A DNA stretch of 64,000 nucleotides. It comes from Candidatus Omnitrophota bacterium (lineage in GTDB: Bacteria; Omnitrophota; Omnitrophia; Omnitrophales; Aquincolibacteriaceae). The notes under the pieces were generated by a model. It saw nothing but the letters and a program-made list of their open reading frames with translations. It ran no database searches and had not been told where the DNA came from. The stretch is taken from positions 35,620 to 99,619 of the forward strand of contig JBDRCT010000031.1 of the NCBI GenBank assembly GCA_043821445.1. Direction: 5' to 3'. Position 1 is the stretch's first letter. The number at the start of each line of letters is the position of its first letter. Position numbers and translations under genes: made by a program. Positions 12,581-56,988 of this stretch are shown here, piece after piece.

Positions 12581-12586
12581 GGAATT

Positions 12587-38764: not shown

Positions 38765-39349
38765 ATGAAGCAGAATACAAGAACAAGGATGCTTGTTGGG
38801 GGTGTCATAGCGGCGATCATCATCTTGGTAGTGTCTCTTCTTCCGCGTCAGGCCGACCAAATCGTGGTAAAGACGAACTATTTTAGCAACGGACAATTGG
38901 AGTTTGAATGTCCTTACAAGAATGGACAGCGCGACGGCCTGTGTAGGACTTATTATCCGAGCGGACAAGCGAGACTCGTAGAGTATTTTCAGGATGGACT
39001 ATTCAACGGCTCGCGCAAAACTTATTTTCCGGATGGGAAATTGGAGACGGAAACAATTTATCAAAACGGGAGGATCGACGAGAGATGGCTTAAGGAATAC
39101 TACGCCAGTGGACAATTGAAAACACAAGTGATCCACCAGCAGGGGAGGAGGCTCGCGGAGAGGATCATTCAAGAGTATTATGAAAGCGGGCAATTGAAAT
39201 CAGAGACCGCCTCCGACGGTGCGTCCGGGATAATAACCATTAAGGAATATTATGAGGACGGAAAGTTGAAGGCCCAGCGGATCCTCAAGGATGGCAAGCC
39301 TGAAGGAATATCTAGCGAGTATGACGAGGCCGGGAACTTGAAGCCGTAG
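38765..39349 (+). CDS. TM-anchored MORN-variant (YwqK-like) repeat protein
   Basis: TM helix, then seven repeats YF.NGQLE/YYPSGQARL/YFPDGKLE/YYASGQLK/YYESGQLK/YYEDGKLK. Confidence 0.6.
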   Translation: MKQNTRTRMLVGGVIAAIIILVVSLLPRQADQIVVKTNYFSNGQLEFECPYKNGQRDGLCRTYYPSGQARLVEYFQDGLFNGSRKTYFPDGKLETETIYQNGRIDERWLKEYYASGQLKTQVIHQQGRRLAERIIQEYYESGQLKSETASDGASGIITIKEYYEDGKLKAQRILKDGKPEGISSEYDEAGNLKP

Positions 39350-40112: not shown

Positions 40113-40631
40113 ATGGACATCAAAGTTCGAATTTTTATGGGCGGGTTGATCGGAGGGGTTATCCTTTCGGCAGTCCTATTGAATCCTGTGGGGTACGGGA
40201 AGTACCCTGTTTGGACGCCCGTTGAGGAACCCGTCAAGACATCCGTTAAGCGGTATTATAAAAGCGGAAAATTATTTTCAGAGAAGTTTTACGGGAAAAC
40301 CGCATCAGAGTGGACGGTCAAGGAGTATTACGAAGACGGGCCGTTGCGTTCAGAGATCTCTTATAAGGATGGAAATCGGGAAGGGATTGCTAAGGAATAT
40401 TACAAAAACGGGCAATTGCGCTCAGAAATATCCTATAAGGATGGAAAGCGGGAGGGGCCTTCCAAGACGTACTACGAAAACGGAAAATTGAAAGGCGAAA
40501 TGGCTTATAAGAACGGAAGGCTCGAGGGACTGTTGCGGTATGACCAGAACGGGCCGTCAGAAAGAGAAATAGGAAGAGAAATAGCAAAAGAAATGGCAAA
40601 AGAAATGGATCCGGAGAGTGGAAAGTCATAG
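40113..40631 (+). CDS. TM-anchored MORN-variant (YwqK-like) repeat protein
   Basis: TM helix, then YYKSGKLFSE/YYEDGPLRSEISYKDGNREG/YYKNGQLRSEISYKDGKREG/YYENGKLKGEMAYKNGRLEG repeats. Tail carries a short EIAKEMAKEM repeat. Confidence 0.6.
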   Translation: MDIKVRIFMGGLIGGVILSAVLLNPVGYGKYPVWTPVEEPVKTSVKRYYKSGKLFSEKFYGKTASEWTVKEYYEDGPLRSEISYKDGNREGIAKEYYKNGQLRSEISYKDGKREGPSKTYYENGKLKGEMAYKNGRLEGLLRYDQNGPSEREIGREIAKEMAKEMDPESGKS

Positions 40632-40756: not shown

Positions 40757-41161
40757 ATGTCAGAAAATAAGAAATGTATCCTGGTCATCGATGACGAAGA
40801 TGATGTTTGCCAGATCATCAAAGAGAAGCTCGAGCCTTTGGGCTATACGATCCTGACAGCTCCCGGTGGGGAGGAGGGTTTCCGGAAAACCGTGGAAGAA
40901 AAGCCCGATTGCGTGCTTCTGGATATTCTCATCCCGAGGGGTGAGGACGGGCTGACTTATCTCCGCACTCTCCGCTTTTATCGCCACCCGGATCTTGAAA
41001 AACAGGAACAGATCAGGAAAACTCCTGTGATCGTGATCACCGGCGCGGGGCTGAAGATGCGGCCTCTCTTCGAGTTTGAGGGGATCAGTGGTTTCATTGA
41101 GAAGCCTTTCGATCTGGCCAATCTCCGCGGCAAGATCGAGCACGTCCTTCGAACGCGTTAG
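40757..41161 (+). CDS. Standalone response-regulator receiver domain protein (paralog of 17474..17878)
   Basis: ILVIDDEDDVCQIIKE...DCVLLDILIP...PVIVITGAGL. About 60% identical to the 17474 protein. Confidence 0.8.
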   Translation: MSENKKCILVIDDEDDVCQIIKEKLEPLGYTILTAPGGEEGFRKTVEEKPDCVLLDILIPRGEDGLTYLRTLRFYRHPDLEKQEQIRKTPVIVITGAGLKMRPLFEFEGISGFIEKPFDLANLRGKIEHVLRTR

Positions 41162-41493
41162 TCCGCGTCACTTTCCCGGGAACTTCCGCGGTTTCTCCCG
41201 TGACTCGCACGCCCTCTTTTTTCCCTCATGACCCGCGTTCCTGAGGCCCTTTTTCCCGTCTGTTCTGGCCCACGCCGGAGACTTTTTCCCAAGGAAGGGT
41301 AAAGCGAAAAGAAAGATTTTTGATTGCATGGAAATGTATTACAATTTCAGAGAAGCTCATTCAATGCCTTGTCTTTCGAGCTCCTTTGAGTACGAAGGAT
41401 GGGTGTGTTCAAGGAAAGGGTTGAATGGGGAAAGAGTGTCCGGTCCGTTGACGCCCGGCATTGTGGGGTCCGATATTTGAGGTGCTATTCGAG

Positions 41494-42942
41494 ATGAAGA
41501 TCTGCCTGATCAATCCACCCTTTACAGACCGGTTTTGCCGCGGTGCCCGTTGGCAAGCTTCCAGCAAAGGCACGGCCCTGTGGATGCCGATCTGGCTGAT
41601 CTATGCGACCGGGGTGCTCGACAAAGCCGGGCACCAGACGCGTCTGATCGACAGCCCGGCCAAGAAGCAATCCCGTGAGGAGCTTTTGGACGAGGTGAAG
41701 GGATTTGCCCCACAAATGATCGTCATTTATACGGCGACGGGGAGCATTGTGAACGATCTGGAAATAACGGATCTCCTGAAGCGGGCGTGTCCGGAAGCGA
41801 TCACCGTGGTCACAGGGCCGCATGTTTCCGTTTTGCCCGAGGACTCCCTGCGCCGTTCGCCGGGAACTGATTACGTGATCTGCCGCGAGTTCGACTCTGT
41901 GTTGCGTGATATGGCGGCCGTGATGGACCGGGGGGGCGATCCTTCATCCCTTGCGGGTCTCGCGTATCTTCGCGACGGGAAATTTACGGCTAACGAACCA
42001 CCGCCTCCGATTGAGAATCTCGACGAGCTGCCCTTCTCCATCCAGGTCATCGAAAAACATCTGAATATTCATCATTATCACATGGATTATTTGCTTTACC
42101 CGTGGGTTCAGACCTATTTCGGACGGGGCTGCTACGCGCAATGTGTTTTCTGCCTGTGGCCGCAAACCCTGATGGGCCGGAAGTACCGCAAGCGCAGTCT
42201 CGACAGCATTTTTGCCGAATTGGACTATATCCGCGACCGGGCGCCTTACGTCAAAGAACTGATGATCGATGATGACACTTTCACCTTCGACCTGGGGCGT
42301 GTCCGGGAATTCTGCGAGCGGAAGATCGCGGGGGGGTATAAGATCAACTGGTGCGCCAATGTCCGGCCCAATATCACCGACATCGAGCTTCTCCGGCTCA
42401 TGAAAAAAGCGGGTTGCCGCGCGATGGTGGCCGGGTACGAATCCGGGAGTCCGGAGATCCTGAAACGGATAAAAAAAGGCATCACCCTGAGGCAAATGGA
42501 GGCTTTTGCCGGGGCCGCCCGCAAGGCCGGCATTCAGGTGCACGGCGATTTCATTATCGGCCTTCCGGGTGAAACTCCCGGGACCATCGAAGAGACTTTC
42601 AGGACGGCGCTCCACCTTAAGCCGGCGACGATGCAGGTTTCGATCGCCCTGCCGCTTCCCGGTACGGAGTTTTATGACTGGCTCAAGGAGAATAAATTTC
42701 TGAAGACCGAGGATTTCTCGCAATTCCTGACCCCGGAGGGGGCCCAGAATGTGATGATGGATTATCCGGGTCTTTCGGGCGAAGACATGAAAAAAGCCAT
42801 GCATCGCATTGTCGTCCGTTATTATTTGCGGCCGGGTTACCTGGCCGGCGCTCTTTGGAGGATCGTGAAAGATCCCCGCGAGGCCGTGAAGTTCTGGCAT
42901 GCGGGGTGCAAGTTTTTTAAATATGCCATGTTTGGAACCTGA
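41494..42942 (+). CDS. B12-binding domain radical SAM protein (class B), paralog 1
   Basis: N-terminal cobalamin-binding-like domain (KICLINPPF...). Radical SAM motif GRGCYAQCVFC (Cx3Cx2C). TIM-barrel core. Confidence 0.8.
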   Translation: MKICLINPPFTDRFCRGARWQASSKGTALWMPIWLIYATGVLDKAGHQTRLIDSPAKKQSREELLDEVKGFAPQMIVIYTATGSIVNDLEITDLLKRACPEAITVVTGPHVSVLPEDSLRRSPGTDYVICREFDSVLRDMAAVMDRGGDPSSLAGLAYLRDGKFTANEPPPPIENLDELPFSIQVIEKHLNIHHYHMDYLLYPWVQTYFGRGCYAQCVFCLWPQTLMGRKYRKRSLDSIFAELDYIRDRAPYVKELMIDDDTFTFDLGRVREFCERKIAGGYKINWCANVRPNITDIELLRLMKKAGCRAMVAGYESGSPEILKRIKKGITLRQMEAFAGAARKAGIQVHGDFIIGLPGETPGTIEETFRTALHLKPATMQVSIALPLPGTEFYDWLKENKFLKTEDFSQFLTPEGAQNVMMDYPGLSGEDMKKAMHRIVVRYYLRPGYLAGALWRIVKDPREAVKFWHAGCKFFKYAMFGT

Positions 42943-44371
42943 GGAACCCATTTTGGATTTACTTCTGATCAATCCCTACTCCTCGAACCCTCATCCGATG
43001 ATCCCGCTCGGTCTGGCGTCCCTGGCCGCTGTGGCCTTGGAGGCAGGTTATTCTGTCAAGGTCGTGGACGCCTGGGCTGAGGGTTTGCGGGATCCCGATC
43101 AACTGGCGAAAAGACTGCGTGCGTTGCCGGTGCCCCGAGTGACGGGGATCAGCGTGCTCACGACCAACCTGCGCAGTGCCAAGGAAACCGCAGTTGCTTC
43201 GCGAACGATCTTTCCCGGGACTCTGCTTGTAATCGGGGGGCCCCACGTGTCGGCGTTGCCCGATGAAGTTTTAAAAGAATTTCCCGCTGCTGATCTGGGG
43301 GTCTATGGCGAAGGGGAAATGACGCTCAAGGAGATCCTCGCGGCCTTTACGCCGGAGGGCAAGCCGCCCCGGGATCTGCCCGGCACCCTGTGGCGGAACG
43401 CAGATCAAACGACCGTTAAGGCCGGACCGCGGCCGACGATCAAGGATCTGGACAGCCTGCCACGGCCTGCCCGGCATCTTTTTACTCTGGACAAATATCA
43501 TCCGCATTCCCCCTACGGCAGAAGATGGCGTTATGTCAATGAGATCACATCGCGTGGTTGTCCCTTTCATTGCGCTTATTGTTCCAAAAGCGTCTTCGGG
43601 GATTCTTACCGGGCGTTCTCCCCGGAACGTGTTGTGGACGATCTCCGGGAACTGGTGGCCCGTTACCACGTGCGGGAGATCCATTTTTATGATGACGATC
43701 TGACCCTAAATCGTAAACGGGCGGTGGAGATCATGGAACGCCTGATCGCGGCGGACCTGGACCTGATCTGGTCCTGCACGACCCGGTGTGATCTCGTGGA
43801 CACCGAACTTCTGGGTCTGATGAAAAAAGCCGGATGCTGGATGATCAGTTATGGCATTGAATCGGGGAATGAAGCTCTGAGGCAGACCGTGCAGAAGGAA
43901 GTCACCCGGGAGCAGATCGAAACCGCGGTCCGGGACACCAAACGGGCCGGGATCAGAGTCACCGGTTATTTCATGATAGGGCTGCCGGGCGAAACAGAAG
44001 AGACCGTAAAAGAAACCATGGGTTTTGCCGACCGGTTGAAGTTACACTACGTCAATTGGGCGGTGATGACCGTGTATCCGGGGAGTCCTTTCTATTTCGA
44101 TATTAAAAATGGAAAATACAAGGATTGCAAATTAACGAAGCAGGGCAGTGAAAAAGGGTCTCTCTTCCAGGACTCATTCGAGACCGGCGTGGAAGGTTGT
44201 TTGACCCGCGATCGCATGGAAACATTGGTTCGCCTGGCCACGCGCCGTTTCTACTTGCGGCCTGACAGCCTGTTGCGGACCCTGACCGATATCAGGTCCT
44301 TCGGTCAGCTGCGGCGTACCTTGCAGACGGGATGGAACATGTATCATTGGTTGAGAAAAGCATCGGCATGA
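42923..44371 (+). CDS. B12-binding domain radical SAM protein, paralog 2
   Basis: LLLINPYSS B12-like domain. SRGCPFHCAYCS motif. Overlaps the upstream gene by 20 nt. Confidence 0.8.
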   Translation: MPCLEPEEPILDLLLINPYSSNPHPMIPLGLASLAAVALEAGYSVKVVDAWAEGLRDPDQLAKRLRALPVPRVTGISVLTTNLRSAKETAVASRTIFPGTLLVIGGPHVSALPDEVLKEFPAADLGVYGEGEMTLKEILAAFTPEGKPPRDLPGTLWRNADQTTVKAGPRPTIKDLDSLPRPARHLFTLDKYHPHSPYGRRWRYVNEITSRGCPFHCAYCSKSVFGDSYRAFSPERVVDDLRELVARYHVREIHFYDDDLTLNRKRAVEIMERLIAADLDLIWSCTTRCDLVDTELLGLMKKAGCWMISYGIESGNEALRQTVQKEVTREQIETAVRDTKRAGIRVTGYFMIGLPGETEETVKETMGFADRLKLHYVNWAVMTVYPGSPFYFDIKNGKYKDCKLTKQGSEKGSLFQDSFETGVEGCLTRDRMETLVRLATRRFYLRPDSLLRTLTDIRSFGQLRRTLQTGWNMYHWLRKASA

Positions 44372-45843
44372 AAGTCCTGCTGGCTTGCCCCAACGATAGT
44401 GAGCTCGCGGCTTCTTTTAGCAAAAAAGGCGGGGTGTCGATCCCTCTGGGGCTTGCGTATCTCGGCGCGTATGTTCAGGATATTCCCGGAATTGAGTTAG
44501 CGGGATTGGATAACAATGCCCTGAAATTAGAGCCGGAAAAATATCGCGAGATCATTGCCCGTGAAGCTCCCGACATTGTTGCGATCAGCGTGATGACCGC
44601 AACGGTATTTACCACATGGGAAATGGCGAGGGTGGTCAAGGATATTAATCCTCGCGCGATCATTGTGGTCGGAGGCGGCCACTGTTCGGCATTGCCCGAG
44701 AGCACGTTCGAGGAACCTGCCATCGACTATGGGGTGGTGGGGGAAGGGGAAGAGGCCTTCCGCGAACTGCTTATGGCACTCCTGGAAAAACGGGATCCGT
44801 CCCGTATCCCTAATCTTATTTACCGACACGACGGAAAGGTCCACGTCAATCCCAGGCGTTCCCCCATCCGGGACATCGACAAGATCCCTTTTCCCAAACG
44901 CGATCTTTTCGACAATTCTAAATACAATATGAATGTCAACCGGCGCGCTACCTCCGGGAAAAACACCACCCTTCTTACCAGCCGTGGGTGTCCCTACGGA
45001 TGCATTTTTTGCTCTAAATCGATCTACGGGCACCATTTTAATCAGAGATCCCCGAAGAACGTGATCGAGGAAATAAAGGCTCTTGAAAACGAGGGTTATA
45101 GCGAGATCCTGATCGTGGATGATACGTTCACCGTCCATAAAAAATGGGTGTTGGAATTCTGCGGTCTCTTTAGCGAACTCCAACTCAAAATGCGGTGGAA
45201 TTGTCACGCACGCGTGAATACCCTCGACGAGGAAACGGTCTCGGCGATGAAGCGGGCGCATTGCACGGGGATGGCGTTCGGGATAGAGTCCGGGAATCCG
45301 GAGATGCTGAAAAAAATAGACAAGCGCATCACCCTGGACCAGGCCCGCGAGGCGGTCCGCCTGTGCAGAAAATACGGGATCAGCACGCTCTGCAGTTACA
45401 TCTTCGGCCATCCGGGGGACACGCGTCAAACGATGAACGATACGCTCCGCGTGGCTCTGGAGTTGGACTCGGACTATGCGAATTTCTGCGTTCTGGTGCC
45501 GATGCCGGGGTCCAAGATCTTTGATGATTTGATGAAAAAAGAAAACGTCGAAAAAAGATGGGACCGCTATCTGGCACATTCCAAATCCCCGATGGCCAAC
45601 AGTCTTTGCGAGATCTCTCAATCGGAACTTCAGACGATACAGAAAAGCGCTTTTCGGCGATTTTATTTTCGGCCCAAATATATCTGGCGGAAACTACTTG
45701 CCATTAAAAATCCTGCAGCGCTATGGAACTTGATCAAAGGCGCCTATATCGTGTTACTCTTTCAGATTCAGGCAGTGTCACGGAAAAATCGTGGCGAAAC
45801 AGGTAGCCGTGATGCGGGTAAAAGTGATCATGGGGCAGAATAA
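44368..45843 (+). CDS. B12-binding domain radical SAM protein, paralog 3
   Basis: ATGA overlap with the upstream gene. SRGCPYGCIFCS motif. Confidence 0.8.
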   Translation: MKVLLACPNDSELAASFSKKGGVSIPLGLAYLGAYVQDIPGIELAGLDNNALKLEPEKYREIIAREAPDIVAISVMTATVFTTWEMARVVKDINPRAIIVVGGGHCSALPESTFEEPAIDYGVVGEGEEAFRELLMALLEKRDPSRIPNLIYRHDGKVHVNPRRSPIRDIDKIPFPKRDLFDNSKYNMNVNRRATSGKNTTLLTSRGCPYGCIFCSKSIYGHHFNQRSPKNVIEEIKALENEGYSEILIVDDTFTVHKKWVLEFCGLFSELQLKMRWNCHARVNTLDEETVSAMKRAHCTGMAFGIESGNPEMLKKIDKRITLDQAREAVRLCRKYGISTLCSYIFGHPGDTRQTMNDTLRVALELDSDYANFCVLVPMPGSKIFDDLMKKENVEKRWDRYLAHSKSPMANSLCEISQSELQTIQKSAFRRFYFRPKYIWRKLLAIKNPAALWNLIKGAYIVLLFQIQAVSRKNRGETGSRDAGKSDHGAE

Positions 45844-45869
45844 AGTGAGCGAGGAGATCGACTGCGGGT

Positions 45870-46823
45870 ATGAATGAGCCATCCGTCAATGTCATTATCC
45901 CGGTCCTGAACGGAGAGCGCACGCTTGCGCAATGCCTGGAGGCTATCGTCCGTCAAACTTATGGCGGCAAGATCATCCCGGTGGTCATTAACGACGGTTC
46001 CACCGACCGCACCTCCGAAATTGCGCGATCGTTCAAAAATGTCCAACTCGTTGAACAGGAAAATAAAGGACGGGCCGTGGCACGTAACGCCGGCATTGCC
46101 GCCTCCGGTGCAGAAATCCTGGCCTTTACCGACGGCGACTGTATTCCCACTGAGACCTGGCTGGCGGTGCTTGTGGAACAGCTTACAAAGCAAGGCAAAA
46201 AACGCGGCCTTGTGGGGGGATCGGTTGCGATCCCCTCAAAAACCAATATTTGGCAGCGGCTTGACCATCAGGCCTGGGCGCATTCTATCGGGCCGGAAGC
46301 TCCCGCCGGTCCCACGATCTTCGGTTCCACCGCCAATATGGCCCTCTTCAGGACGGTATTCAACGCGGTGGGAGGTTTTGATCCCCGTCTGCGGGGGAGC
46401 GAGGATTCCGATTTGGCATTCCGGATACACCGCGCTGGATACGAAAATTTCTTTGAACCCAAGGCGGTCGTGATGCATGATCATCCGCGTACCACGATGG
46501 GCGCTTTTCTCCGCCAGCGCTTCAATTACGGAAAGTGGACCATACAAACGGTGCTCAAGCACAAGCCCTTGCCGCCTTATTCCTGGATGTTCCCGAACAG
46601 TCGGATCCTGTTGGCTTTGCTCTGGCCGTGTTATGCCTTTTTGGCGACCGTCTTTACCGTGCTGCGCAATCTTCCTCGCGATCCCTCTGTCCTTTGGCTG
46701 AGTCCCCTGCACTTGTTGGGGCGCATTTGGGAATATCTCGGCACCGTGGCAGGTTGCGGGGATTATCAGCGGATCTTCGGCAAGGACGCCGGGTCACGCA
46801 CGCAAGGAGATCCCCGATGCTGA
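45870..46823 (+). CDS. Glycosyltransferase family 2
   Basis: VNVIIPVLNGERTLAQCLEAI...VVINDGSTDRT GT-A N-terminus. DGD/DxD-like motifs. Confidence 0.8.
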   Translation: MNEPSVNVIIPVLNGERTLAQCLEAIVRQTYGGKIIPVVINDGSTDRTSEIARSFKNVQLVEQENKGRAVARNAGIAASGAEILAFTDGDCIPTETWLAVLVEQLTKQGKKRGLVGGSVAIPSKTNIWQRLDHQAWAHSIGPEAPAGPTIFGSTANMALFRTVFNAVGGFDPRLRGSEDSDLAFRIHRAGYENFFEPKAVVMHDHPRTTMGAFLRQRFNYGKWTIQTVLKHKPLPPYSWMFPNSRILLALLWPCYAFLATVFTVLRNLPRDPSVLWLSPLHLLGRIWEYLGTVAGCGDYQRIFGKDAGSRTQGDPRC

Positions 46824-47878
46824 CCGATATCCTCCAATGGAAGCTGACTTCGCGGGCATGCCGTCTGCCCCTCTATATGATCGTTTTTGTGACCTACCGG
46901 TGCAACTCCCGGTGCCGGACTTGTTTTTATCACGAGCAGATCGAAAGTCCGCAGTCCGCGGACTTGCCGCTCGATTTTTATGCCGAGGTGGCGCGTTCGC
47001 TGCCTCGCTTACTTTGGCTGCATCTCTCGGGCGGTGAACCTTTTTTACGCAAAGACCTGCCGGAGCTTGTGGCGGAGTTCTACCGGCATTCCGGCGTTCG
47101 CAAGATCGGCATTCCCACGAACGGTCTCGCGGGGGAGAACCTTTTGGAGAGCGCCCGCCGGATCCTCGCTCTTTGTCCGGAGGCACAGCTCAATATTGTT
47201 TTGTCCCTGGATGGATTGGAGAAAACACACGATTTTCTGCGGGGCGTTCCCGGCAATTATCAAAAGACGATGCTCGCGCTCGAAGGGCTCAAAGAGATCC
47301 GCTCGAAACATCCCCGGTTGGCTTTGAACGTGTGCACCGTTCTCAATAATTACAATGCGGGGGAGATCCCGGAATTGTTACGGCACGTGCAGGAACTGGG
47401 CGTTGACTTTCACGATGTGGGACTCTTGAGAGGAGATTTCCCTGATAAGAGCCTGGAACTTCCGCCGGCCGACGAAGTGGAGAAGATCCTGGACCTGGTG
47501 GATTACTATGCCGAACGTTATTACGCGGCCGGCCGCCATTATCCGGGGGTGTCTGCCCGTCTTGCCGCCCGGGCGCACCGGCACCTCAATCGTTCTTTTC
47601 TCGAGTTTTTACGCACCGGTACGGTGGCCCGGCCTTGTCAGATCGGGGACGGATTCGCCGTGATAGAGCCCAACGGCGATGTGCGCTTGTGTGAGATGAC
47701 GCCCGTGATCGGGAACCTTCTTAAATGGCACGGTGATCTTGCCGCTTTCTGGAATAGCACCGCCGTACGCAAAGCCAGGCGAACGGGGCTCTGTTCCGCC
47801 GGCGCCTGTACGCACAGCAATTTTCAGACACGGAATTTTCTTTTGAATCCCGGCCAGTGGTGGAGGGCCTTCTCCTGA
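46817..47878 (+). CDS. Radical SAM protein with C-terminal SPASM-like Cys cluster
   Basis: ATG at 46817 overlaps the GT2 stop. YRCNSRCRTC (Cx3Cx2C). C-terminal CQIGDG...CEMTPV...CSAGACTHSN cysteine cluster. Confidence 0.7.
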   Translation: MLTDILQWKLTSRACRLPLYMIVFVTYRCNSRCRTCFYHEQIESPQSADLPLDFYAEVARSLPRLLWLHLSGGEPFLRKDLPELVAEFYRHSGVRKIGIPTNGLAGENLLESARRILALCPEAQLNIVLSLDGLEKTHDFLRGVPGNYQKTMLALEGLKEIRSKHPRLALNVCTVLNNYNAGEIPELLRHVQELGVDFHDVGLLRGDFPDKSLELPPADEVEKILDLVDYYAERYYAAGRHYPGVSARLAARAHRHLNRSFLEFLRTGTVARPCQIGDGFAVIEPNGDVRLCEMTPVIGNLLKWHGDLAAFWNSTAVRKARRTGLCSAGACTHSNFQTRNFLLNPGQWWRAFS

Positions 47879-49278
47879 AGATCCTTTTTCTGAACCCGCC
47901 CTTTGGCTCGCGCCGTCCGGAAGGCCTTGATGCGCCGATGGGCATCATGTATCTGGGCGCCGTGCTGAAGCAAGCGGGGCACTCGTGTTCCCTGGTGGAC
48001 CATGTGTGGGAAAAACAAGATGATTGGCGCAAATGGGATCTTGCGCTTTCCAAAAAACCCGATGCGGTGCTCGTCAACACGCAGATCCGGTTCAGTAACG
48101 AGACCCATGCGGCGATGCGGAGACTCCGGTCCCAATATCCTTCGCTCCCGGCGATCGCGTTCGGTCCCCAGGCCTCGACGGAGCCTTCCCGGTTATTACT
48201 GGAAACGGGATTTGACGCTTGCGTGATCGGCGAACCCGAAGAAGTGATCCCTGACGTGTTCCATGACATGGCAAGGCGAAAGACGATCTTGGCCCGGCCG
48301 GGTATCGCCACCGTGGAAAACCCGAATTCCGGACCGGCGTCCCGGATGGACGTCGAAAAACTTCCATGGCCCGATTGGGACTTGGTGGAATACGGGCGGT
48401 ATATCCACTCCACCCACAGCGCCGTTTTTATGGCTTCGAGGGGATTGAACTATGAGGATAAGTTCAATCAGCCGCCGCTTATCTATGCGAAAAAACCCAC
48501 TCGGCGTCTCAGTATCGAACGCGTCATGTGCGAACTTACGCAGTTACGCGAACGTTTTCCTGGCAACTACATGCTTCTTTTTCACGATGAGATCTTCACG
48601 GAAGACCGAGATTGGGTGATCAAACTATGCGCCGCATTGAGGAAATCCCAATGGAAAGCGCCTTATTGGTGCTTCACTCGTCCCGATCTTATCGACACAG
48701 AACTTTGCCGCACCCTGCGCCGGAGCGGGTTCGTGGGCCTCAGCATGGGGATGGAAAGCGCCTCGGACCGGATCCTGGGGATCTTGGGGAAAGAGTTGAC
48801 CGTTTCCCAAATTGAAAAAGGATTCCGTTCGGCACAAAAAGCGGGGCTTCTTACGACAGGCTCGGTCATGATCGGCACCGCCAGTGATGAACTGGGACAA
48901 CCCGATGAAGACCGGCGCGAGCTCGAGTCGACTGTCCATATGGTAGGCCGCCTGCATCCGGATGTTCTTACCGTGACGCTCACCACTCCGCTGCCGGGAA
49001 CGCCTCTGTATGAGTCTTTGAAAGAGAGGGTTCTGGCAAAGTCACCGGAGGAATTTAACTATTATCATGTTTGGCCCGGAAAATATCCGTTACGCCTTGA
49101 AACTCTTACCGCCGGGGACCTTGCAAAAGCCGCGGCGCATATCAGGGCCGTATGGAAACGCAAACTTTGGAAAACGGCATTAAGAATATTGGTCCTTGCT
49201 TTTAGTAATGGAGCGTTCCGTAATACCTTGTTCAACCAGATCGCAAAGGTCGTGAAGCGCAAAGTCCTTCCTGCGTGA
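47857..49278 (+). CDS. B12-binding-domain radical-SAM-like protein lacking the CxxxCxxC motif (probable pseudoenzyme)
   Basis: Clear homology to the three upstream paralogs (LFLNPPFGSRR..., downstream core). The position of GRGCxxxCxFC reads ASRGLNYEDKFN, so all three Cys are replaced. Confidence 0.65.
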   Translation: MVEGLLLKILFLNPPFGSRRPEGLDAPMGIMYLGAVLKQAGHSCSLVDHVWEKQDDWRKWDLALSKKPDAVLVNTQIRFSNETHAAMRRLRSQYPSLPAIAFGPQASTEPSRLLLETGFDACVIGEPEEVIPDVFHDMARRKTILARPGIATVENPNSGPASRMDVEKLPWPDWDLVEYGRYIHSTHSAVFMASRGLNYEDKFNQPPLIYAKKPTRRLSIERVMCELTQLRERFPGNYMLLFHDEIFTEDRDWVIKLCAALRKSQWKAPYWCFTRPDLIDTELCRTLRRSGFVGLSMGMESASDRILGILGKELTVSQIEKGFRSAQKAGLLTTGSVMIGTASDELGQPDEDRRELESTVHMVGRLHPDVLTVTLTTPLPGTPLYESLKERVLAKSPEEFNYYHVWPGKYPLRLETLTAGDLAKAAAHIRAVWKRKLWKTALRILVLAFSNGAFRNTLFNQIAKVVKRKVLPA

Positions 49279-49294
49279 TCGCCGGAGAAATCAC

Positions 49295-50305
49295 TTGATG
49301 GATATATCGGTTTGCATTGTGACCTATAACGCCGCAGAACATATCGGTGCCTGCCTAAGGTCGATCCTGAATCTCGTGCCCCATGGCGGCAGAACGGAGG
49401 TCCTGGTGGTCGATGGATGCTCCACGGATGATACCCTCAAAATAGTCCGCGGTTTTGCCGGCCGTGTCCGTCTCGTCGAAAATCCGAAGAGGACGATTGC
49501 CTCGAACCGGAATGTGGCCCTTCGCGAGGCCCTCTATCCCTACATCGCCTTCACGGATTCAGACTGCATCGTGCCGCCGAACTGGCTTGGGATGCTTGCG
49601 GCATCCTTCGAGGAGATCCAAAAAAACGATACCCGTTTAGCCGGCGTGGGCGGCGGAAACATAGCTCCTTCCGGGGAAAGCCCGTTTCAGACCGCGCTCG
49701 GCATCGCGCTTGATTCATTGCTCGGCAGTCTCGGTTCCGTGCAGGGAAGGATCTTCGTGGAACAGCGCCGGGTGGCAAGTATCGCGTGCCTCAATGCCCT
49801 CTATGCGCGCGCCGCCCTGGAATCAGCCGGGGGATTCGATGAACTCTTGGGAAATATGTGCGAGGATGCGGACATGAACTATCGCCTGAACAAAAAAGGA
49901 TACGGATTGTATTTTGTTCCCGGGGTTCTCGTGGAGCACGGTGCGAGGCGGTCGTTTGGGTCCTGGTGCATGAATATGTATCATTACGGGATCGGCCGGG
50001 CCAGGATCATGCGTAAGCACCGGACCCTCTTTTCTCCGGCGTACGTGATCGCTTTTCTTTTTCTTCCCGGATTATTCGTCGCAAGCCTGTTGGGCATCTT
50101 GTGGCCGCAGGCTTTTCTCGTGTGGCTCTACATTCCATTTGTGATGCTTTCCGGTTTTTTTCTAGCGATGCATAAACACCCTGCTTCAGGCTTGCGTGTA
50201 GGCCCTATTTTGATCGGGACGCATCTTTTTTATGCCGCGGGCCTTTGGCACGGATTTTTCGCGGGTTATCCCGGGAATTCCGGAACCGGTCAAGTGAGGT
50301 CCTAG
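49295..50305 (+). CDS. Glycosyltransferase family 2 with C-terminal TM segments
   Basis: ISVCIVTYNAAEHIGACLRSI...VVDGCSTDDT GT-A N-terminus. Two C-terminal TM helices. Confidence 0.8.
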   Translation: MMDISVCIVTYNAAEHIGACLRSILNLVPHGGRTEVLVVDGCSTDDTLKIVRGFAGRVRLVENPKRTIASNRNVALREALYPYIAFTDSDCIVPPNWLGMLAASFEEIQKNDTRLAGVGGGNIAPSGESPFQTALGIALDSLLGSLGSVQGRIFVEQRRVASIACLNALYARAALESAGGFDELLGNMCEDADMNYRLNKKGYGLYFVPGVLVEHGARRSFGSWCMNMYHYGIGRARIMRKHRTLFSPAYVIAFLFLPGLFVASLLGILWPQAFLVWLYIPFVMLSGFFLAMHKHPASGLRVGPILIGTHLFYAAGLWHGFFAGYPGNSGTGQVRS

Positions 50306-50466
50306 CACCGCATAGTATTTTAAATGAGGGGTATGCGGTACAGCGCTTGATTTTCATTAATAAAAAATGATCAGAAATCAGTGCAGTCCAAGTCACCATT
50401 CATGAAAAGAAATAAAGACTTGGGCAGTACTTTTAACCCTTAAAATGAAATGGAGAAAAGTACTCG

Positions 50467-50877
50467 ATGTTCCTTAAAGAGCATATCCTTACGGGAGCTG
50501 TTGCGGCGGGGGTGGTGGGCTGGTACGTATCCCCCCAGGCGGGTATTTCGGTGCTGGCCGGAAGCGTGCTGATTGATGTGGACCATTACTTATGGTATAC
50601 CGTAAAATTCAAAGATAACTCGCTCGGACGGGCCACGCATTTTTTTGAAGCCAAAGAGGCGGATCACTATTATTGTCTTTGTGTTTTGCATACGGTCGAG
50701 GTGATCGCGGTCTATATCGCCGGGGTCTTATTCATGCATGGCGCGATCTTTTGGATTTCGGCCGGCTGTCTCATGCATATGGCGCTTGACGTGGCCCAGG
50801 GCATTCTGGACGGGGGGCTCTTTCGCAGAAAGTGGAGTCTGATCCACGCGATCTTCTTTCGCGCCAGGGGCGGGTGA
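50467..50877 (+). CDS. Hypothetical membrane protein
   Basis: Three to four hydrophobic helices. No recognisable motif. Confidence 0.45.
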   Translation: MFLKEHILTGAVAAGVVGWYVSPQAGISVLAGSVLIDVDHYLWYTVKFKDNSLGRATHFFEAKEADHYYCLCVLHTVEVIAVYIAGVLFMHGAIFWISAGCLMHMALDVAQGILDGGLFRRKWSLIHAIFFRARGG

Positions 50878-50919
50878 TTTTTTTTCATAACGTAAAAAAT
50901 GATAAGAAAGGATCAGGCG

Positions 50920-51642
50920 ATGAGCGGCACAAACAGTTCGCGTTCGCTGGTGCTTATCCCGGCCTATAATGAGGCTTTGCGAATAAGCGGGCTTATTGAA
51001 AGTATCAGGCGTGTCGTACCTGAAATGTCCATTCTTGTGGTGAATGACGGTTCAAAGGATGATACTCTAAACATTTCCCGCCTATCCGGCGCTACCGTCG
51101 TCACTCACCCTTTTAACATGGGATACGGCGTTGCGATCCAAACCGGTTACAAGTACGCTCTTGCCCAGAACTATGATTATCTTGTCCAGCTTGACGCCGA
51201 CGGCCAGCACGATCCGTCCTGCATTTCGGCGCTTTTGGCTCCGGTGATCGCGGGAACGGCCGATTTCGCTATCGGCTCGCGTTTTCTCGGGAACAGCTAC
51301 CGCCCGCCGCTTGCGCGCAGGGTGGGCATGGCGCTCTTCCGCGGGATCGTATTTCTGGTCACGGGCAAGTTCATTACAGATACGACCTCAGGATTTCAAG
51401 CGTTCAACCGTGAGGTCATACGTTTTTTTTCTACGGATATCTTTCCCGTCGACTATCCGGACGCCGATATGCTGATCACGCTCCATCGCGCGGGCTTTCG
51501 CATGATCGAGATCCCGGTCCGGATGATCGAAAACCGCGACGGAAAATCCATGCACGGCGGATGGAAGCCGGTCTACTACATGTTCAAGATGCTGTTGTCC
51601 ATTGGCGTGACGCTCATGAGGGCCAAGGGAAAAAATAAATGA
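50920..51642 (+). CDS. Polyprenol-phosphate glycosyltransferase (GT2, DPM/GtrB/ArnC-like)
   Basis: LVLIPAYNEALRI...VVNDGSKDDT...VQLDADGQHDP. Typical of polyisoprenyl-phosphate hexose transferases. Confidence 0.8.
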   Translation: MSGTNSSRSLVLIPAYNEALRISGLIESIRRVVPEMSILVVNDGSKDDTLNISRLSGATVVTHPFNMGYGVAIQTGYKYALAQNYDYLVQLDADGQHDPSCISALLAPVIAGTADFAIGSRFLGNSYRPPLARRVGMALFRGIVFLVTGKFITDTTSGFQAFNREVIRFFSTDIFPVDYPDADMLITLHRAGFRMIEIPVRMIENRDGKSMHGGWKPVYYMFKMLLSIGVTLMRAKGKNK

Positions 51643-51771
51643 GATGCCCTGCGATCGTGCGGCGGTATCAACCTAGCACCGCCTCAAGATTGAATTTATG
51701 GGTTGGCGGTACAGCACTGTTAATCCATAAAATCCAAATTGAAAACAGTGCTAGGGAAAAACGGGGGAACC

Positions 51772-52137
51772 ATGCTTGAAAGCCAAAAAATATTTGCTTT
51801 ATTGACTTGCTGTTTTGTTTTTGTGTATACCCTCAATCTGGTGAGAAGGCGAAAACTCCGCGAAGAATACTCCGTCCTCTGGCTGGGGACCAGCCTGCTG
51901 ATGTTCATCCTCGTGATACGCTACGAATGGCTCGTGGCCCTCACCGGCCTGATCGGAGCCGGCCTGCCGACGACCACTTTGTTTATTGGCGCGATCATCT
52001 TTCTCATGCTGATAGCGGTTCAGCTTTCGATCAAGATATCGAATCTGACAGACCAGGTAAAAAATCTTGCCCAGGAAAATGCCTTGCTCCGGAACGAGGT
52101 GATCCCATGTCCGCGAGGACCGGACGCAAAGGGATAG
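51772..52137 (+). CDS. DUF2304-like small membrane protein (partner of the GtrB-type GT2)
   Basis: Two to three TM helices plus a C-terminal coiled coil. Conserved synteny with DPM-like GT2 genes. Confidence 0.55.
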   Translation: MLESQKIFALLTCCFVFVYTLNLVRRRKLREEYSVLWLGTSLLMFILVIRYEWLVALTGLIGAGLPTTTLFIGAIIFLMLIAVQLSIKISNLTDQVKNLAQENALLRNEVIPCPRGPDAKG

Positions 52138-52226: not shown

Positions 52227-53585
52227 TTAGGATCGCCGCCAACTTATATGATCGTGTTTTACCATTGTGTTATCCAGAAGATGTGTGTCGGCATCTTCCT
52301 GCGAGATAAGACCTTTCTGAACACCTTCCCTTAGGGCGTCGTTACGCAAGAGCATTCCCTGAGCCCGATTCATCGCCATGACATTGTAGATCTGAATAGT
52401 TTGGTTATCCCGTATCAGATTACGGATCGGAATCGTGACCGGCATCGTTTCAAAGATCGCCACACGTCCGGGGCTGTCCTTTCTTTTGAGCAGGACCTGC
52501 GAGATGACCGCCTGAAGCGTCATGGCCAGCTGGACCCTCATTTGAGACTGTTGGTTGGGAGGGAAGACGTCGATCAAGCGTTCGATGGCTTGGACGGCAT
52601 CGTTAGTGTGAAGTGTTGCAAAGACCAGGTGGCCTGTTTCGGCTGCGGTCAAAGCCATCGAGATGCTTTCCAGGTCACGGATCTCTTCAACGACGAGCAC
52701 GTTCGGGTCTTCCCGGAGTGCCACACGAAGAGCGCTTGCAAAAGAGATCGCATCGTCTCCGATCTCGCGTTGGCTGATCACGCAGCATTTATTCTTGTGG
52801 ACATATTCGATAGGGTCGGACAGCGTGATGATGTGGGCATTCCTGTGATTGTTCATATGGTGCACCAAGGCCGCCAGGGTCGTGGTCTTGCCGCAGCCCG
52901 TGGCGCCGGTAAGCAGCACGAGCCCATTAGGCAAAGCGACCAGCTTTTCCATTAAGGGAGGAAGCCCGAGTTGCTCCATGGTGGGTGGGACAATGGGGTT
53001 GGCGCGAAAAACACCGCTCAGATGGTTCCGTTGATAGAAAAAATTAATACGGAACCGGTGGGTGAAATTCGGAAGTGTTACGGAACAATCCACTTGGCGG
53101 TTTTCAAGAAGATACTCTTTTTGATCCCTGCTGAGGAATATCTGGATGCAGGAATCCATAAAATCGTCCGTGACGGGTTTTACCTGCATGAAAGGAGACA
53201 GAATGCCGTCGATTCTGAAGATCGGATGGCTTCCCACCTGAAAATGGATATCCGAGGCGTTGCGACTCAGGCCGCTTTTCAAAACGCTCAGGACATCGTC
53301 CGGTGTTTTTGGAACGTTACCGGCCTTCTTGGAAGATTCTTCCTCGGGCTCGTTCTTTGGGTCCCCTTGAATATAGACGATATCGTCAACCATGAAAATC
53401 CCCCCCTTGGATTTTGAAAGTTCACGCTTGTAAGAAAAAGTATCTGTATAAAAGTATATCTGGAGGAAGGTTTGTTGGGAAGCATTTAAATGGGGATTTG
53501 TGTTGCGAAAGACCGGGTCTTTCGATATTTTAAAGGCCCTAAGCAAATCCGTCGCATACGCCTTTAACGGGAGATCCTGAGACAA
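52227..53585 (-). CDS. PilT/PilU-family type IV pilus retraction ATPase (with N-terminal extension)
   Basis: Walker A GLVLLTGATGCGKTTT. Asp box and His box (LVVEEIRD, TLHTNDAV). Alternative start at the Met corresponding to nt 53393 would give ~388 aa. Confidence 0.8.
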   Translation of the reverse strand: MSQDLPLKAYATDLLRAFKISKDPVFRNTNPHLNASQQTFLQIYFYTDTFSYKRELSKSKGGIFMVDDIVYIQGDPKNEPEEESSKKAGNVPKTPDDVLSVLKSGLSRNASDIHFQVGSHPIFRIDGILSPFMQVKPVTDDFMDSCIQIFLSRDQKEYLLENRQVDCSVTLPNFTHRFRINFFYQRNHLSGVFRANPIVPPTMEQLGLPPLMEKLVALPNGLVLLTGATGCGKTTTLAALVHHMNNHRNAHIITLSDPIEYVHKNKCCVISQREIGDDAISFASALRVALREDPNVLVVEEIRDLESISMALTAAETGHLVFATLHTNDAVQAIERLIDVFPPNQQSQMRVQLAMTLQAVISQVLLKRKDSPGRVAIFETMPVTIPIRNLIRDNQTIQIYNVMAMNRAQGMLLRNDALREGVQKGLISQEDADTHLLDNTMVKHDHISWRRS

Positions 53586-53595
53586 GGAGGTTGCC

Positions 53596-54279
53596 GTGAG
53601 TTCCTACGAATATACGATGGGGAAAACGTTGGATCTAAAAGCCGAGCAGGAGAGGACGCTTGCGACGCCCAAGCTTCCGGCGAATGGGATATTGAGGCTC
53701 ATGTTCTGGCAATTTAATGTGCTCTACGGGAAGCCTCGGTCGCTGCCGAAGGTCATGGTTCTCGAGATCCTTGCGCGCTACCCTTACTGGGCGTGGGAGA
53801 ACGGCGCCTACCATTTTTTGTCGAAACTTTACAGCGGTACCAAAAAAGTCCCCGTTGAAAAGGTCGAGGTGGCCCTGCGCCATATCCAAATGGGGCGCGA
53901 ATCACAGGATAACGAACAGTGGCACATGTTCCTTTGGGCGGACCTTTGCCACCAGAAGGGGATCAAACTCGGCTGGCTCCGTCATTTTGTGATCCCCAAG
54001 TCCATGACGCTTGTTTATTTCTTCATGACGCGCATCATGTATTGGCTCAAGCCTGTTTGGTCATTCGCCATGAACGCCGCCTTTGAGTCCCACGCCGAAC
54101 ACGAATACATGCTCTATGCCAAAGAACACCCCGAGTTTGAGGATATGCCTGTGGATTCTGTGTGGTTTCAGCATTACCCCAAGCAGAAGTCCTTGGCGGA
54201 TCTCATCCGTCGCGTGGGCCTGGATGAGCGGGATCACATGAATCACTCCCTGGAAGAGATTGAAAAGCTGACAAAGTAA
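53596..54279 (+). CDS. Hypothetical protein
   Basis: 227-aa ORF, helical and Trp/His-rich. No motif recognised. Confidence 0.4.
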   Translation: MSSYEYTMGKTLDLKAEQERTLATPKLPANGILRLMFWQFNVLYGKPRSLPKVMVLEILARYPYWAWENGAYHFLSKLYSGTKKVPVEKVEVALRHIQMGRESQDNEQWHMFLWADLCHQKGIKLGWLRHFVIPKSMTLVYFFMTRIMYWLKPVWSFAMNAAFESHAEHEYMLYAKEHPEFEDMPVDSVWFQHYPKQKSLADLIRRVGLDERDHMNHSLEEIEKLTK

Positions 54280-54289
54280 TTTCGAGGGA

Positions 54290-55447
54290 TTAAGAAGAAG
54301 TTTGTTGGTAAAGGGAAAGGGCGGGAGCGGGAAGCTTGAGATCGGGGAAGCGCCTTGCAATGCTTTCGTGGAACAGATAATCCAGGTGATCATTGCTTTC
54401 GGGGGCATCTCCCATTACCTCACGCCAGACGGTCCTGTTCTCCATACAGAAATAAACGAAGACATCCTCCCAGCGCCTCCGGATCTCGCTATAAATATGC
54501 CGGTAGAGCCCGACACGTTCCGGCCGGAAATAGCGCATCTTTCCGTCCAGGCCCTTGACGAATTCCGCCGTCGTGATCTTTGTTCTTGGAAAGCGTTCCT
54601 CGATGACCTTTTTAAGTGAGGCCGGATAGCGCAAGCTGCCAAGGCTGATCCACATCACTTCTTTTTCTGGGATGGCTGAGGTCAGTTTTTCGAGAAGTTC
54701 CGCGTACCGTTCCTTCCATCCCGGCAGCATGAGCAGGGGATCGAAATGAAAGCCCAGGCGGTAACCTTTTTTGAGGGCCTTGCGGGCCGCTTTCAAACGC
54801 ACCTCCAAAGACACGGTTTTGTGCTCCTCCGTCCGGATGAAGGGGTCAGGATTCAGCGACCAGGAGACGAGGACGTTTTTTTTTGGAATATCCGGCAAAT
54901 GATCGACCTGAGCGGTCTTGGTCTTGATCTCCAGGATCATTTTCGTACCGAGGACGTGACGGATCAAGCCCTCATTCAGGCGGATCAGCCGGTCCAGCGC
55001 GAGGCTGTCCGTCAGTTCTCCCGTGCCCATCCGGAAAAGGCGCCGTGGCTGGCTTGCGATCAGGGCGTCAATCTCGCGGGGAATATTCCCGGTATTGACA
55101 TAGACCGTGATCAGCGGGACATTCAAATAATTCTGCAGGATGCAATAAGTGCAGTCGAGAGGGCAGTGGGTTTGCGCGTTGAGGATCCGGTAGCCGCAAC
55201 AAAGGTAATCCGTCCCCGTGGCGGGGCAAGGTTTGAGGAAGGGCCCCTTGAAGTTCGTGAGCCAAAGTTTTTTCTTGCCGGCGGTAAGCGGTGTTTTTTC
55301 AATCGTTCTGAGAAAGGCGTTCTTGTCCGAGACGGTCGTGACCGGGATGCCGCCGAGGGTCCGAAGGATGTGCCCGGCAAGAGGCGAGCGAGCGACATTT
55401 TTATCCAGATAGATATGATCGATCCCGGGAATGGGTTTTGAGTTCAT
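54290..55447 (-). CDS. Spore-photoproduct-lyase-family radical SAM DNA repair protein
   Basis: CPLDCTYC (Cx3Cx2C) radical SAM motif. Overall length and layout fit SPL (SplB-like) family proteins. Confidence 0.7.
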   Translation of the reverse strand: MNSKPIPGIDHIYLDKNVARSPLAGHILRTLGGIPVTTVSDKNAFLRTIEKTPLTAGKKKLWLTNFKGPFLKPCPATGTDYLCCGYRILNAQTHCPLDCTYCILQNYLNVPLITVYVNTGNIPREIDALIASQPRRLFRMGTGELTDSLALDRLIRLNEGLIRHVLGTKMILEIKTKTAQVDHLPDIPKKNVLVSWSLNPDPFIRTEEHKTVSLEVRLKAARKALKKGYRLGFHFDPLLMLPGWKERYAELLEKLTSAIPEKEVMWISLGSLRYPASLKKVIEERFPRTKITTAEFVKGLDGKMRYFRPERVGLYRHIYSEIRRRWEDVFVYFCMENRTVWREVMGDAPESNDHLDYLFHESIARRFPDLKLPAPALSLYQQTSS

Positions 55448-56790: not shown

Positions 56791-56988
56791 TGAAAGGGTG
56801 GCACGTATGAGGAAAGTGACGGCGAACGAGATATTGAATCAACGAACTTATGGCCCTGAAATCTTGTATATACCAGTGACGTCATTTTATACGGAGATCG
56901 CTCGCGAAGTGGCTTTTGCCAGTTGGAGCCAAAACAATGATTCGATCTATTTCCACCGGCAATTATTCCCAAAAGGAGGAAACAAAAT

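Follow-up and report, generated by a model that had tools for sequence, protein, structure and literature searches.

What do several B12-domain radical S-adenosylmethionine (SAM) enzymes do in one gene cluster with three family 2 glycosyltransferases (GT2s) and a DUF2304 membrane protein? The question was raised by ten genes, g1 to g10, at 41494-52137 of a 64-kb stretch of Candidatus Omnitrophota DNA, called the window here. With moderate confidence, we read them as one operon for a membrane pathway that would build a lipid-linked sugar or short glycan for the cell envelope and tailor it by radical chemistry. A glycan substrate was suggested by the GacI/GacJ-like pair g9/g10, by relatives of g1 in glycan clusters, and by the gene combination at a distant Margulisiibacteriota locus (L006). 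Radical tailoring of a sugar was suggested by the genetics of the HpnJ cyclitol and by the nearest solved relatives, AprD4 and BlsE, which modify sugars. The general idea of a radical-modified glycoconjugate had been put forward in a reading of the DNA letters alone (the sequence-only reading), and it fits the glycan neighbourhoods of the g1 relatives and the match of g9/g10 to GacI/GacJ and PpgS/Rv3632.

The ten genes were co-directional on the plus strand and densely packed, with successive junctions from g1 to g10 of -44, -40, +26, -7, -22, +16, +161, +21 and +96 nt (open reading frame (ORF) calling over the window). Proteins of the window were assigned to families with Pfam and NCBIfam, judged against the curated cut-offs (for Pfam, 32.1 bits for PF02310, 29.5 for PF04055 and 21.5 for PF13186). 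The HpnJ-like g1 (41494-42942), g2 (42899-44371) and g3 (44332-45843) encode class-B, or B12-binding, radical SAM enzymes. All three exceeded the cut-offs for both PF02310 (59-80 bits) and PF04055 (77-96 bits), with the CxxxCxxC motif present as CYAQCVFC in g1 (motif CYAQCVFCLWPQT), CPFHCAYC in g2 and CPYGCIFC in g3. These are followed by g4 (45870-46823), a GT2 with one C-terminal transmembrane (TM) helix (PF00535, 92.7 bits; hydropathy peak at residues 246-264), and by g5 (46817-47878, the true start probably being the ATG at 46817), a radical SAM protein with a twitch/SPASM-like C-terminal Cys cluster. Next are g6 (47857-49278), a homologue of the B12-domain radical SAM enzymes without CxxxCxxC, and g7 (49295-50305), a GT2 with two to three C-terminal TM helices (PF00535, 92.7 bits; PF13632 and PF13506; TM peaks at residues 251-292). 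The last three genes encode a small helical membrane protein of an orphan family (g8, 50467-50877), a GT2 of the GacI/PpgS/AglJ type and predicted polyprenyl-phosphate sugar synthase (g9, 50899-51642; PF00535, 81 bits), and a DUF2304 protein with three TM segments (g10, 51739-52137, possibly starting only at the ATG at 51769; PF10066, 89.5 bits, cut-off 25.5). Hydropathy predicted membrane-spanning segments in four of the ten proteins (g4, g7, g8 and g10). The ten genes, the three cysteine motifs, the three GT2s with their DUF2304 partner, and a receiver gene upstream at 40757 had all been named in the sequence-only reading; the genes stood at the coordinates given there, the motifs agreed exactly, and the assignments held, including a PF00072 match for the receiver.

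The cluster is rare and its order is conserved. When a profile of the g6 family was run against the genomes of 185,579 species, one per species, true cluster loci appeared in six, four of them from Omnitrophota, one from Thermodesulfobacteriota and one from Desulfuromonadaceae. Since the gene order recurred in these six loci from three phyla, the layout is not due to chance, and the earlier view of the radical SAM genes and GT2s as a single unit held across the three phyla in this synteny search. Gene-by-gene comparison of the syntenic loci gave a shared plan of g1-g2-g3, a further B12-domain radical SAM gene, a cassette, and g6-g7-g8-g9-g10. The fixed core consisted of g1, g6, g7, g9 and g10 (each of the six close loci, and L006 too, had an orthologue of g7), while the middle cassette varied. 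The pair g4 and g5 filled it in the window, L008 and L012; a different radical SAM gene of 333 amino acids with a class-I methyltransferase gene took its place in L009/L001 and L011/L002; and L007 carried both sets together. Correspondingly, g4 was found in L007, L008 and L012 and was missing from L009/L001 and L011/L002. The further B12-domain gene was carried by L008, L009 and L012 and not by the window. The g9/g10 pair lay on the opposite side of the cluster in L011 and L012; despite this rearrangement, it accompanied g1, g6 and g7 wherever a close locus extended far enough. The gap between g7 and g8 shrank to 0-8 nt in L007 and L009. Because the Omnitrophota loci kept their flanking genes (VanZ, MORN and receiver genes upstream; PilT-like and spore-photoproduct-lyase (SPL)-like genes downstream), the locus occupies one fixed place in the chromosome and varies inside.

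The first three genes were only 29-31% identical to one another, and each had its own orthologue elsewhere with 65-96% identity; g1-g3 are, by this comparison, ancient paralogues, old lineages with distinct functions. The "three tandem paralogs" of the sequence-only reading are indeed adjacent genes of one type, but a recent tandem duplication was ruled out by their low mutual identity. Orthologues of g2 were 70-81% identical in L007, L008, L009 and L012 and 40% identical in L006; those of g3 in the syntenic loci were 66-82% identical. A protein with 100% identity to g6 is recorded at NCBI for a Candidatus Omnitrophota metagenome-assembled genome (MAG), and g1 was 89% identical to a protein from a further MAG of this group. 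The Margulisiibacteriota locus L006 held five B12-domain radical SAM genes, methyltransferase genes, a GT2 like g7 and a GT2 paired with DUF2304.

The relationship of g1 to HpnJ is central to the proposed chemistry. Against the HpnJ model TIGR03471, g1 aligned from end to end with 425.5 bits, below the cut-off of 577.6, whereas a genuine HpnJ (P0159), 38% identical to g1, scored 708 bits. The other paralogues were also below the cut-off (g2 and g3, 193 bits each; g6, 70 bits), and the BchE scores of g2 (185 bits) and g3 (191 bits) were far below theirs. An extended motif, CxxxCxxCLWPQT, was common to g1 and HpnJ and absent from g2, g3 and g6. HpnJ formed one clade in a neighbour-joining tree without support values, with g1 outside it and the non-HpnJ sequences spread over several neighbouring clades. 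By score and tree, g1 belongs to an HpnJ-like radiation but is not HpnJ itself.

A metagenome scan with the g1 family profile, of which the best 80 loci were kept, separated the two kinds of gene by their surroundings. Most of the 80 were true HpnJ genes, with scores of about 520 bits for HpnJ and about 325 for g1, and neither g7-like nor g9-like neighbours were found among them. The minority were non-HpnJ relatives of g1, and these lay within glycan clusters, in bacteria as well as in archaea. The 83 proteins neighbouring g1 relatives at 14 non-HpnJ loci included 20 GT2s, 12 glycosyltransferases of families 1 and 4, five radical SAM proteins, five class-I methyltransferases, three UDP-GlcNAc 2-epimerases, two Wzx-type flippases, two nucleotidyltransferases and two PMT_2 glycosyltransferases of the C fold (GT-C). 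A g7-like GT2 directly preceded the g1-like gene with a 4-nt overlap in L014, L016, L018, L024 and the Methanogenium locus L003. The direct order g9-like, g7-like, g1-like was seen in the last four of these, and L015 had the same order with other genes interposed. These glycosyltransferase-rich neighbourhoods and the recurring gene order assign the g1 group to glycan assembly and not to hopanoid synthesis, and the genomic context links g1 functionally to g7 and g9. None of shc, hpnH, hpnI and hpnK was found in the window or the six syntenic loci, and the HpnI scores of g7 and g4 were 21 and 30 bits. A true hopanoid pathway was rejected on score, phylogeny and gene context together.

Three further observations concern relatives of these genes. 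At L012 (1105-12425 of the Desulfuromonadaceae MAG contig JAQTQX010000001.1), g1 was 85% identical and g6 and g7 only about 60%, a pattern that points to horizontal transfer or mosaic evolution, or perhaps to mis-binning; two extra genes are present in this version, one for a class-I methyltransferase between g1 and g2 and one for a DUF218 protein behind g7. At 5156-6732 of L010, adjacent ORFs encode a B12-binding domain alone (238 amino acids) and a C-terminal radical SAM part alone (264 amino acids), probably a broken gene a few kilobases downstream of the cluster copy. Finally, 6985-13812 of L021 holds a gene at the base of the HpnJ clade (HpnJ score 510 bits), with a g7-like GT2 before it and g3-like and g2-like B12-domain radical SAM genes and a methyltransferase after it; clusters with several such genes around an HpnJ-type gene thus exist in other lineages too.

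The nearest solved relative of g1, g2, g3 and g6 alike was AprD4, and the PDB neighbours of g3 were AprD4, TsrM, QCMT and TokK. C-methylation, as the sequence-only reading had it, proved to be an assumption that these relatives do not favour: g1 lies beside HpnJ, a proposed ring-contracting enzyme that is not a methylase, and the nearest structure is AprD4. The ring contraction of lipid-bound glucosamine to the cyclitol by HpnJ is itself inferred from genetics only. None of g1-g3 and g6 reached the NCBIfam cut-off of any characterised family. A clustering of the paralogues with BchE- or HpnP-like enzymes, together with GT2s in a separate operon, which had been named as speaking against a joint pathway, was not observed.

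The strongest NCBIfam match of g9 was to PpgS (NF058614) with 105 bits, followed by AglJ with 74 and dolichyl-phosphate hexose transferase with 64.5, all below cut-off (370 bits for the PpgS equivalog). Directly downstream, 96 nt away, is g10, so that the two show the GT2-DUF2304 adjacency known from GacI/GacJ and PpgS/Rv3632. In those pairs, GlcNAc- or GalNAc-phosphoryl-polyprenol is the product of the GT2, and the small membrane protein is a strong activator that binds to the enzyme (bioRxiv 10.1101/180810). By analogy, g10 is predicted to be a GacJ/Rv3632-type activator of g9. Unrelated metagenomic contigs also carried g9-like genes next to genes resembling g7 and g1. Next to the cluster in L002/L011, a 541-amino-acid protein on the minus strand (6784-8409 in L002 coordinates) had a weak PMT_2 match (17 bits), which makes it a possible GT-C transferase of the kind that depends on a polyprenyl-phosphate sugar.

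The sixth gene deviated most distinctly from its superfamily. Its B12-binding match (34.7 bits) was weak, marginally above the Pfam cut-off, and its Radical_SAM match (29.0 bits) just under. The description of g6 as a fourth B12-domain paralog was borne out in its domain, but the CxxxCxxC motif is entirely gone. All 17 aligned family members, g6 and 16 relatives, carried SRGLNxxDxFNQPPLI where the outgroups have RGCPxxCxxC, with L/D/N-type residues at all three Cys positions. Mean column identity within the family was 69%, and the Rossmann GP and GE(P)E positions and the barrel HDE.F and G.ES positions were invariant. An exhaustive HMMER search against 1.84 billion representatives returned essentially one cluster at 50%, its own; the Cys motif is present in the nearest relative outside it (34% identity) and in 147 of the 149 best representatives, the other two being fragments. 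The AlphaFold2 model was confident (predicted local distance difference test (pLDDT) 88.5; predicted TM-score (pTM) 0.87), and the former Cys loop, residues 204-213, was the sole disordered internal segment. Foldseek matched the model best to AprD4 (TM-score 0.73) and then to TsrM, with QCMT, OxsB, CysS and TokK among the further matches. Judged by its residues, g6 cannot be a radical SAM enzyme, because all three motif cysteines are lost. A non-radical role is more likely than decay, since the loss is family-wide, the rest of the protein is strongly conserved and the fold is confidently predicted. In such a role, g6 may handle cobalamin, transfer methyl groups by a polar route, or serve as a scaffold or partner.

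For g5, the Radical_SAM match (PF04055) was clear at 48 bits and the SPASM match (PF13186) borderline at 21.1-21.6 bits. Its orthologues keep CNSRCRTC and four C-terminal Cys. SPASM domains have seven C-terminal Cys and twitch domains fewer. Because four rather than seven are conserved, g5 seems to be twitch-like, compatible with a single auxiliary cluster, rather than a full SPASM protein; the earlier SPASM-like label described the radical SAM protein with C-terminal Cys correctly but claimed more than g5 shows. The best solved relative of g5 was BlsE, a cytosylglucuronate decarboxylase (E 3.7e-8), and then MoaA.

The Pfam scan of g8 gave no match at E<0.01; the YdjM family (PF04307) was sub-threshold with 15.4 bits and E 0.013. 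All 18 relatives found were at least 60% identical, and those with a source name came from Omnitrophota. Invariant or near-invariant residues were D37, D39-H40, D66, C70, C72, H75, E78, H104 and D108, giving the conserved pattern DxDH, CxC..H..E, H, D. The AlphaFold2 model was unreliable (pLDDT 59.9). The residue pattern and the sub-threshold match suggest that g8 may be a YdjM-like, metal-dependent hydrolase of the membrane.

Based on these observations, we propose a pathway that would begin with g9. With g10 as activator, g9 would transfer a hexose or N-acetylhexosamine from a nucleotide sugar to polyprenyl monophosphate at the cytoplasmic face. The sugar would be extended by g7, and in this strain also by g4 of the cassette, as AglJ and then AglG act on dolichyl phosphate. 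The carrier-bound sugar might then undergo an HpnJ-type radical rearrangement by g1, e.g. a ring contraction, and further class-B reactions by g2 and g3, for which C-methylation is the commonest precedent. A twitch-type radical oxidation or decarboxylation by g5 would resemble the reactions of BlsE and BtrN on sugars. Without Fe-S ligands, g6 could not cleave SAM; it may be a polar methyltransferase, or it may assist the active paralogues as a partner or scaffold that takes no part in the radical chemistry but perhaps binds cobalamin. A hydrolytic step on the carrier-bound sugar may fall to g8. Flipping and final transfer would depend on genes elsewhere. Modification of a sugar on undecaprenyl phosphate has a precedent in ArnC/ArnD. 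The interchangeable cassette would give strain-specific versions of the product, which resembles the strain-level variation of surface glycans.

Several points weigh against this proposal. Since no enzyme reached the cut-off of a characterised family, we infer the sugar, the acceptor, the types of reaction and every step. The match to PF02310 is no proof that g1-g3 and g6 bind cobalamin, given the counter-example of AprD4, a diol dehydratase with a Rossmann-like domain that does not bind it. The AglJ/AglG-style scaffold is a choice between precedents, because polyprenyl-phosphate sugars of the GacI or PpgS type serve as donors for a periplasmic GT-C enzyme and not as scaffolds. Neither among the Pfam-scanned ORFs of the window nor in the close loci examined was there a flippase, GT-C enzyme, oligosaccharyltransferase, nucleotide-sugar gene or deacetylase, apart from the weak PMT_2 match beside the L002 cluster. 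Moreover, g1 is not adjacent to g7 in the window, unlike in the distant loci, and the tree that separates g1 from HpnJ carries no support values.

The same genes might instead modify a core lipid, with the radical SAM enzymes acting on the hydrocarbon of a membrane lipid and the GT2s adding a sugar head group to give a modified glycolipid. Reviews give class-B radical SAM enzymes a prominent place in lipid modification, and HpnP/HpnR, GrsA/B, Hgm/Gmm, Tes/Mss and the ladderane enzyme are precedents for methylation, cyclisation and cross-linking. The scores of g1-g3 on the model of the ladderane-lipid B12-domain enzyme (105-139 bits) and of g5 on Tes (46 bits) and GDGT-MAS (30 bits) point the same way, but they are far below cut-off and were equalled or exceeded by unrelated families. 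The GT-A domain and C-terminal TM segments of g7 recall lipid glycosyltransferases, as do its weak matches to GT21, HpnI, HpnB and CruG; the invariant GacI/GacJ-type pair, however, indicates a polyprenyl-phosphate sugar, and the neighbourhoods of g1 relatives were made up mostly of glycosyltransferases, flippases and nucleotide-sugar enzymes. Methyltransferases of related loci had CMAS-type matches, yet these were weaker than the generic class-I matches on the same proteins. Neither shc, hpnH nor isoprenoid or fatty-acid genes occurred in the cluster or its relatives. We therefore consider a core-lipid pathway rather unlikely.

A glycosylated small molecule of the aminoglycoside, nucleoside or phosphonate kind, or a ribosomally synthesised and post-translationally modified peptide (RiPP), appears very unlikely as the product. 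Here the GT2/DUF2304 pair would serve self-resistance or an unrelated envelope function, but g9 and g10 co-vary with the radical SAM genes across phyla. The nearest solved relatives do come from antibiotic pathways (AprD4, BlsE, TokK, TsrM and CysS), SPASM/twitch proteins are typical peptide maturases, and g2, g3 and the extra B12-domain gene of L001 scored 145-178 bits on models of P-methyltransferase and of the RiPP enzyme ApyD. The cluster nevertheless has no phosphoenolpyruvate (PEP) mutase, non-ribosomal peptide or polyketide synthase, aminotransferase, cyclitol synthase or transporter, four of its ten proteins are predicted to span the membrane, and g9 is paired with a membrane protein. 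No precursor-peptide ORF was conserved, and the sole sizeable spacer, upstream of g1, is only about 72-93 nt in L009/L001. A RiPP or phosphonate cluster was rejected for lack of a precursor peptide and of a PEP mutase. Nor do the radical SAM genes and the GT2/DUF2304 genes look like unrelated operons lying side by side. Gaps of 161 nt (g7-g8) and 96 nt (g9-g10), the solitary GT2/DUF2304 pairs of many genomes, and the transposed pair in L011 and L012 would allow such a chance adjacency. Against it, g9/g10 are kept with g1, g6 and g7 in the close loci and in the distant L006, g9-like genes stand beside g7-like and g1-like genes in unrelated contigs, and the 161-nt gap closes to 0-8 nt in L007 and L009, so that synteny largely refutes the idea and we hold it to be extremely improbable.

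The lipid-linked glycan pathway, our preferred reading, combines components of known superfamilies, and glycosyltransferases with tailoring enzymes are a familiar logic. We found no description of the cluster in the literature on B12-domain radical SAM enzymes with glycan clusters or undecaprenyl phosphate, or in that on Omnitrophota. As far as searched, three things are new: a GacI/GacJ-type module combined with at least four B12-domain radical SAM-type genes and another radical SAM gene; a broad HpnJ-like but non-HpnJ set, including g1, in bacterial and archaeal glycan clusters; and a conserved family of the B12-domain radical SAM fold without the cluster motif (g6). To our knowledge, sugar tailoring by radical SAM enzymes has been described in antibiotic pathways, for one hopanoid head group and for one archaeal case (calditol), and not for ordinary envelope glycans. 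The operon would tie a well-understood carrier-lipid step of the GacI/GacJ type to five radical-SAM-type proteins, and it points to a large sister group of HpnJ within the glycan clusters of bacteria and archaea. It would also offer a compact system for studying HpnJ-type function, the cooperation of B12-domain enzymes on a membrane substrate, and the role of the fold without its cluster. Omnitrophota are an uncultured phylum with an unusual, host-associated lifestyle, and the pathway may explain part of their surface chemistry. A bolder proposal, which we regard as unlikely in this combined form, is that the HpnJ-like enzymes of glycan clusters make carbocyclic or rearranged carrier-linked sugars and that g6 is their obligate partner for handling cobalamin or presenting the substrate. 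If the first part were true, envelope glycans containing carbasugars would be widespread but unrecognised; if the second were, g6 would represent a new kind of pseudo-radical-SAM protein.

Upstream of the operon, the stand-alone response-regulator receiver domain g0 (40757-41161, plus strand; PF00072, 63 bits) ends 332 nt before g1. Orthologues with 88% and 75% identity lie directly upstream of the cluster in L008 and L009, and the cluster versions of L011 and L012 have none; g0 is a possible regulator of the operon. The spacer between g0 and g1 was 88% identical to that of L008, with a nearly invariant run of about 65 nt at ~41303-41370 that contains TTGATTGC...TACAAT-like elements. This conserved block is a putative promoter or leader for the operon. 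A sigma-70 scan did not flag it, and the general promoter and terminator scan was uninformative, with counts at or below the shuffled expectation. The Rfam scan found no cobalamin riboswitch or other family in the block or anywhere in the window, and the window contained no tRNAs. Only unconserved short ORFs occurred in the spacer, which is about 72-93 nt long in L009/L001.

The region downstream (52227-55447) encodes a PilT/T2SSE-type ATPase (minus strand, convergent), an alternative-oxidase-like di-iron protein (plus) and the SPL-like radical SAM protein (minus). The PilT-like and SPL-like genes hold the same position in L007-L009, and nothing ties them to the pathway. Four small MORN_2-variant paralogues lie on the plus strand (3844-4473, 34696-35214, 38744-39349 and 40113-40631), two of them just upstream of the cluster, and genes of the MORN type stand beside the cluster in L008 and L009 as well. 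At 18439-31368 (plus strand), one giant ORF of 4309 amino acids is of a kind reported for Omnitrophota, and L001 has a 5121-amino-acid gene upstream of its cluster. A second very long plus-strand ORF (~56941-64000) of at least 2353 amino acids runs off the end of the window; it contains tandem repeats of 15 and 36 nt (57244-57989), and the many short minus-strand ORFs across it are its shadows. Further upstream, genes for an extracytoplasmic function (ECF) sigma factor, a zf-HC2 anti-sigma factor and three tandem LTXXQ/Metal_resist (Spy/CpxP-like) periplasmic proteins (7779-10877, plus strand) are followed by hrcA-grpE-dnaJ (11060-13678).

Parts of the proposed pathway have counterparts in several known systems. 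In the synthesis of the bacteriohopanetetrol cyclitol ether by HpnI, HpnK and HpnJ, a GT2 adds a hexosamine to a lipid, and the B12-domain protein HpnJ is then genetically required for the five-membered cyclitol. The likeness lies in the end-to-end alignment of g1 with the HpnJ model, the 38% identity and the shared CxxxCxxCLWPQT. The differences are the score (425 versus 577.6 bits) and the position of g1 outside the HpnJ clade, the lack of shc, hpnH, hpnG and hpnK nearby, the predicted lipid, polyprenyl phosphate instead of a hopanoid, and the three additional B12-domain radical SAM-type genes and one other radical SAM gene found here. GacI/GacJ of Streptococcus and PpgS/Rv3632 of Mycobacterium share with g9/g10 a GT2 directly beside a small DUF2304 protein with three TM segments. 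Their GT-C enzyme (GacL/Rv3630 type) and flippase (GacK type) are not in the window, however, those systems are without radical SAM enzymes, and g9 scored 105 versus 370 bits.

The archaeal AglJ/AglG route, where a DPM1-like GT2 primes polyprenyl monophosphate, other GT2s lengthen the glycan on this carrier and a methyltransferase modifies it, resembles the order of steps suggested here; g9 matched AglJ with 74 bits, g4 and g7 matched AglG weakly, and g1-like genes occur in archaeal glycan clusters. In contrast to that route, the host is bacterial, the scores were below cut-off, and no oligosaccharyltransferase or flippase was found here. We know of no radical SAM tailoring in the described Agl pathways. 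For g6, TsrM is a possible analogue, a protein of the same fold that works non-radically and without SAM cleavage, although TsrM binds a [4Fe-4S] cluster through its cysteine motif and all three cysteines of the motif are missing from the g6 family. The antibiotic enzymes AprD4, GenK/GenD1, BtrN, BlsE and OxsB differ in their soluble substrates from actinomycete secondary metabolism, unlike the membrane-centred cluster here, and their similarity is low (36-101 bits), but between them they provide radical deoxygenation, C-methylation, oxidation, decarboxylation and ring contraction of sugar rings, reactions of the kind that we suggest for g1-g3 and g5.

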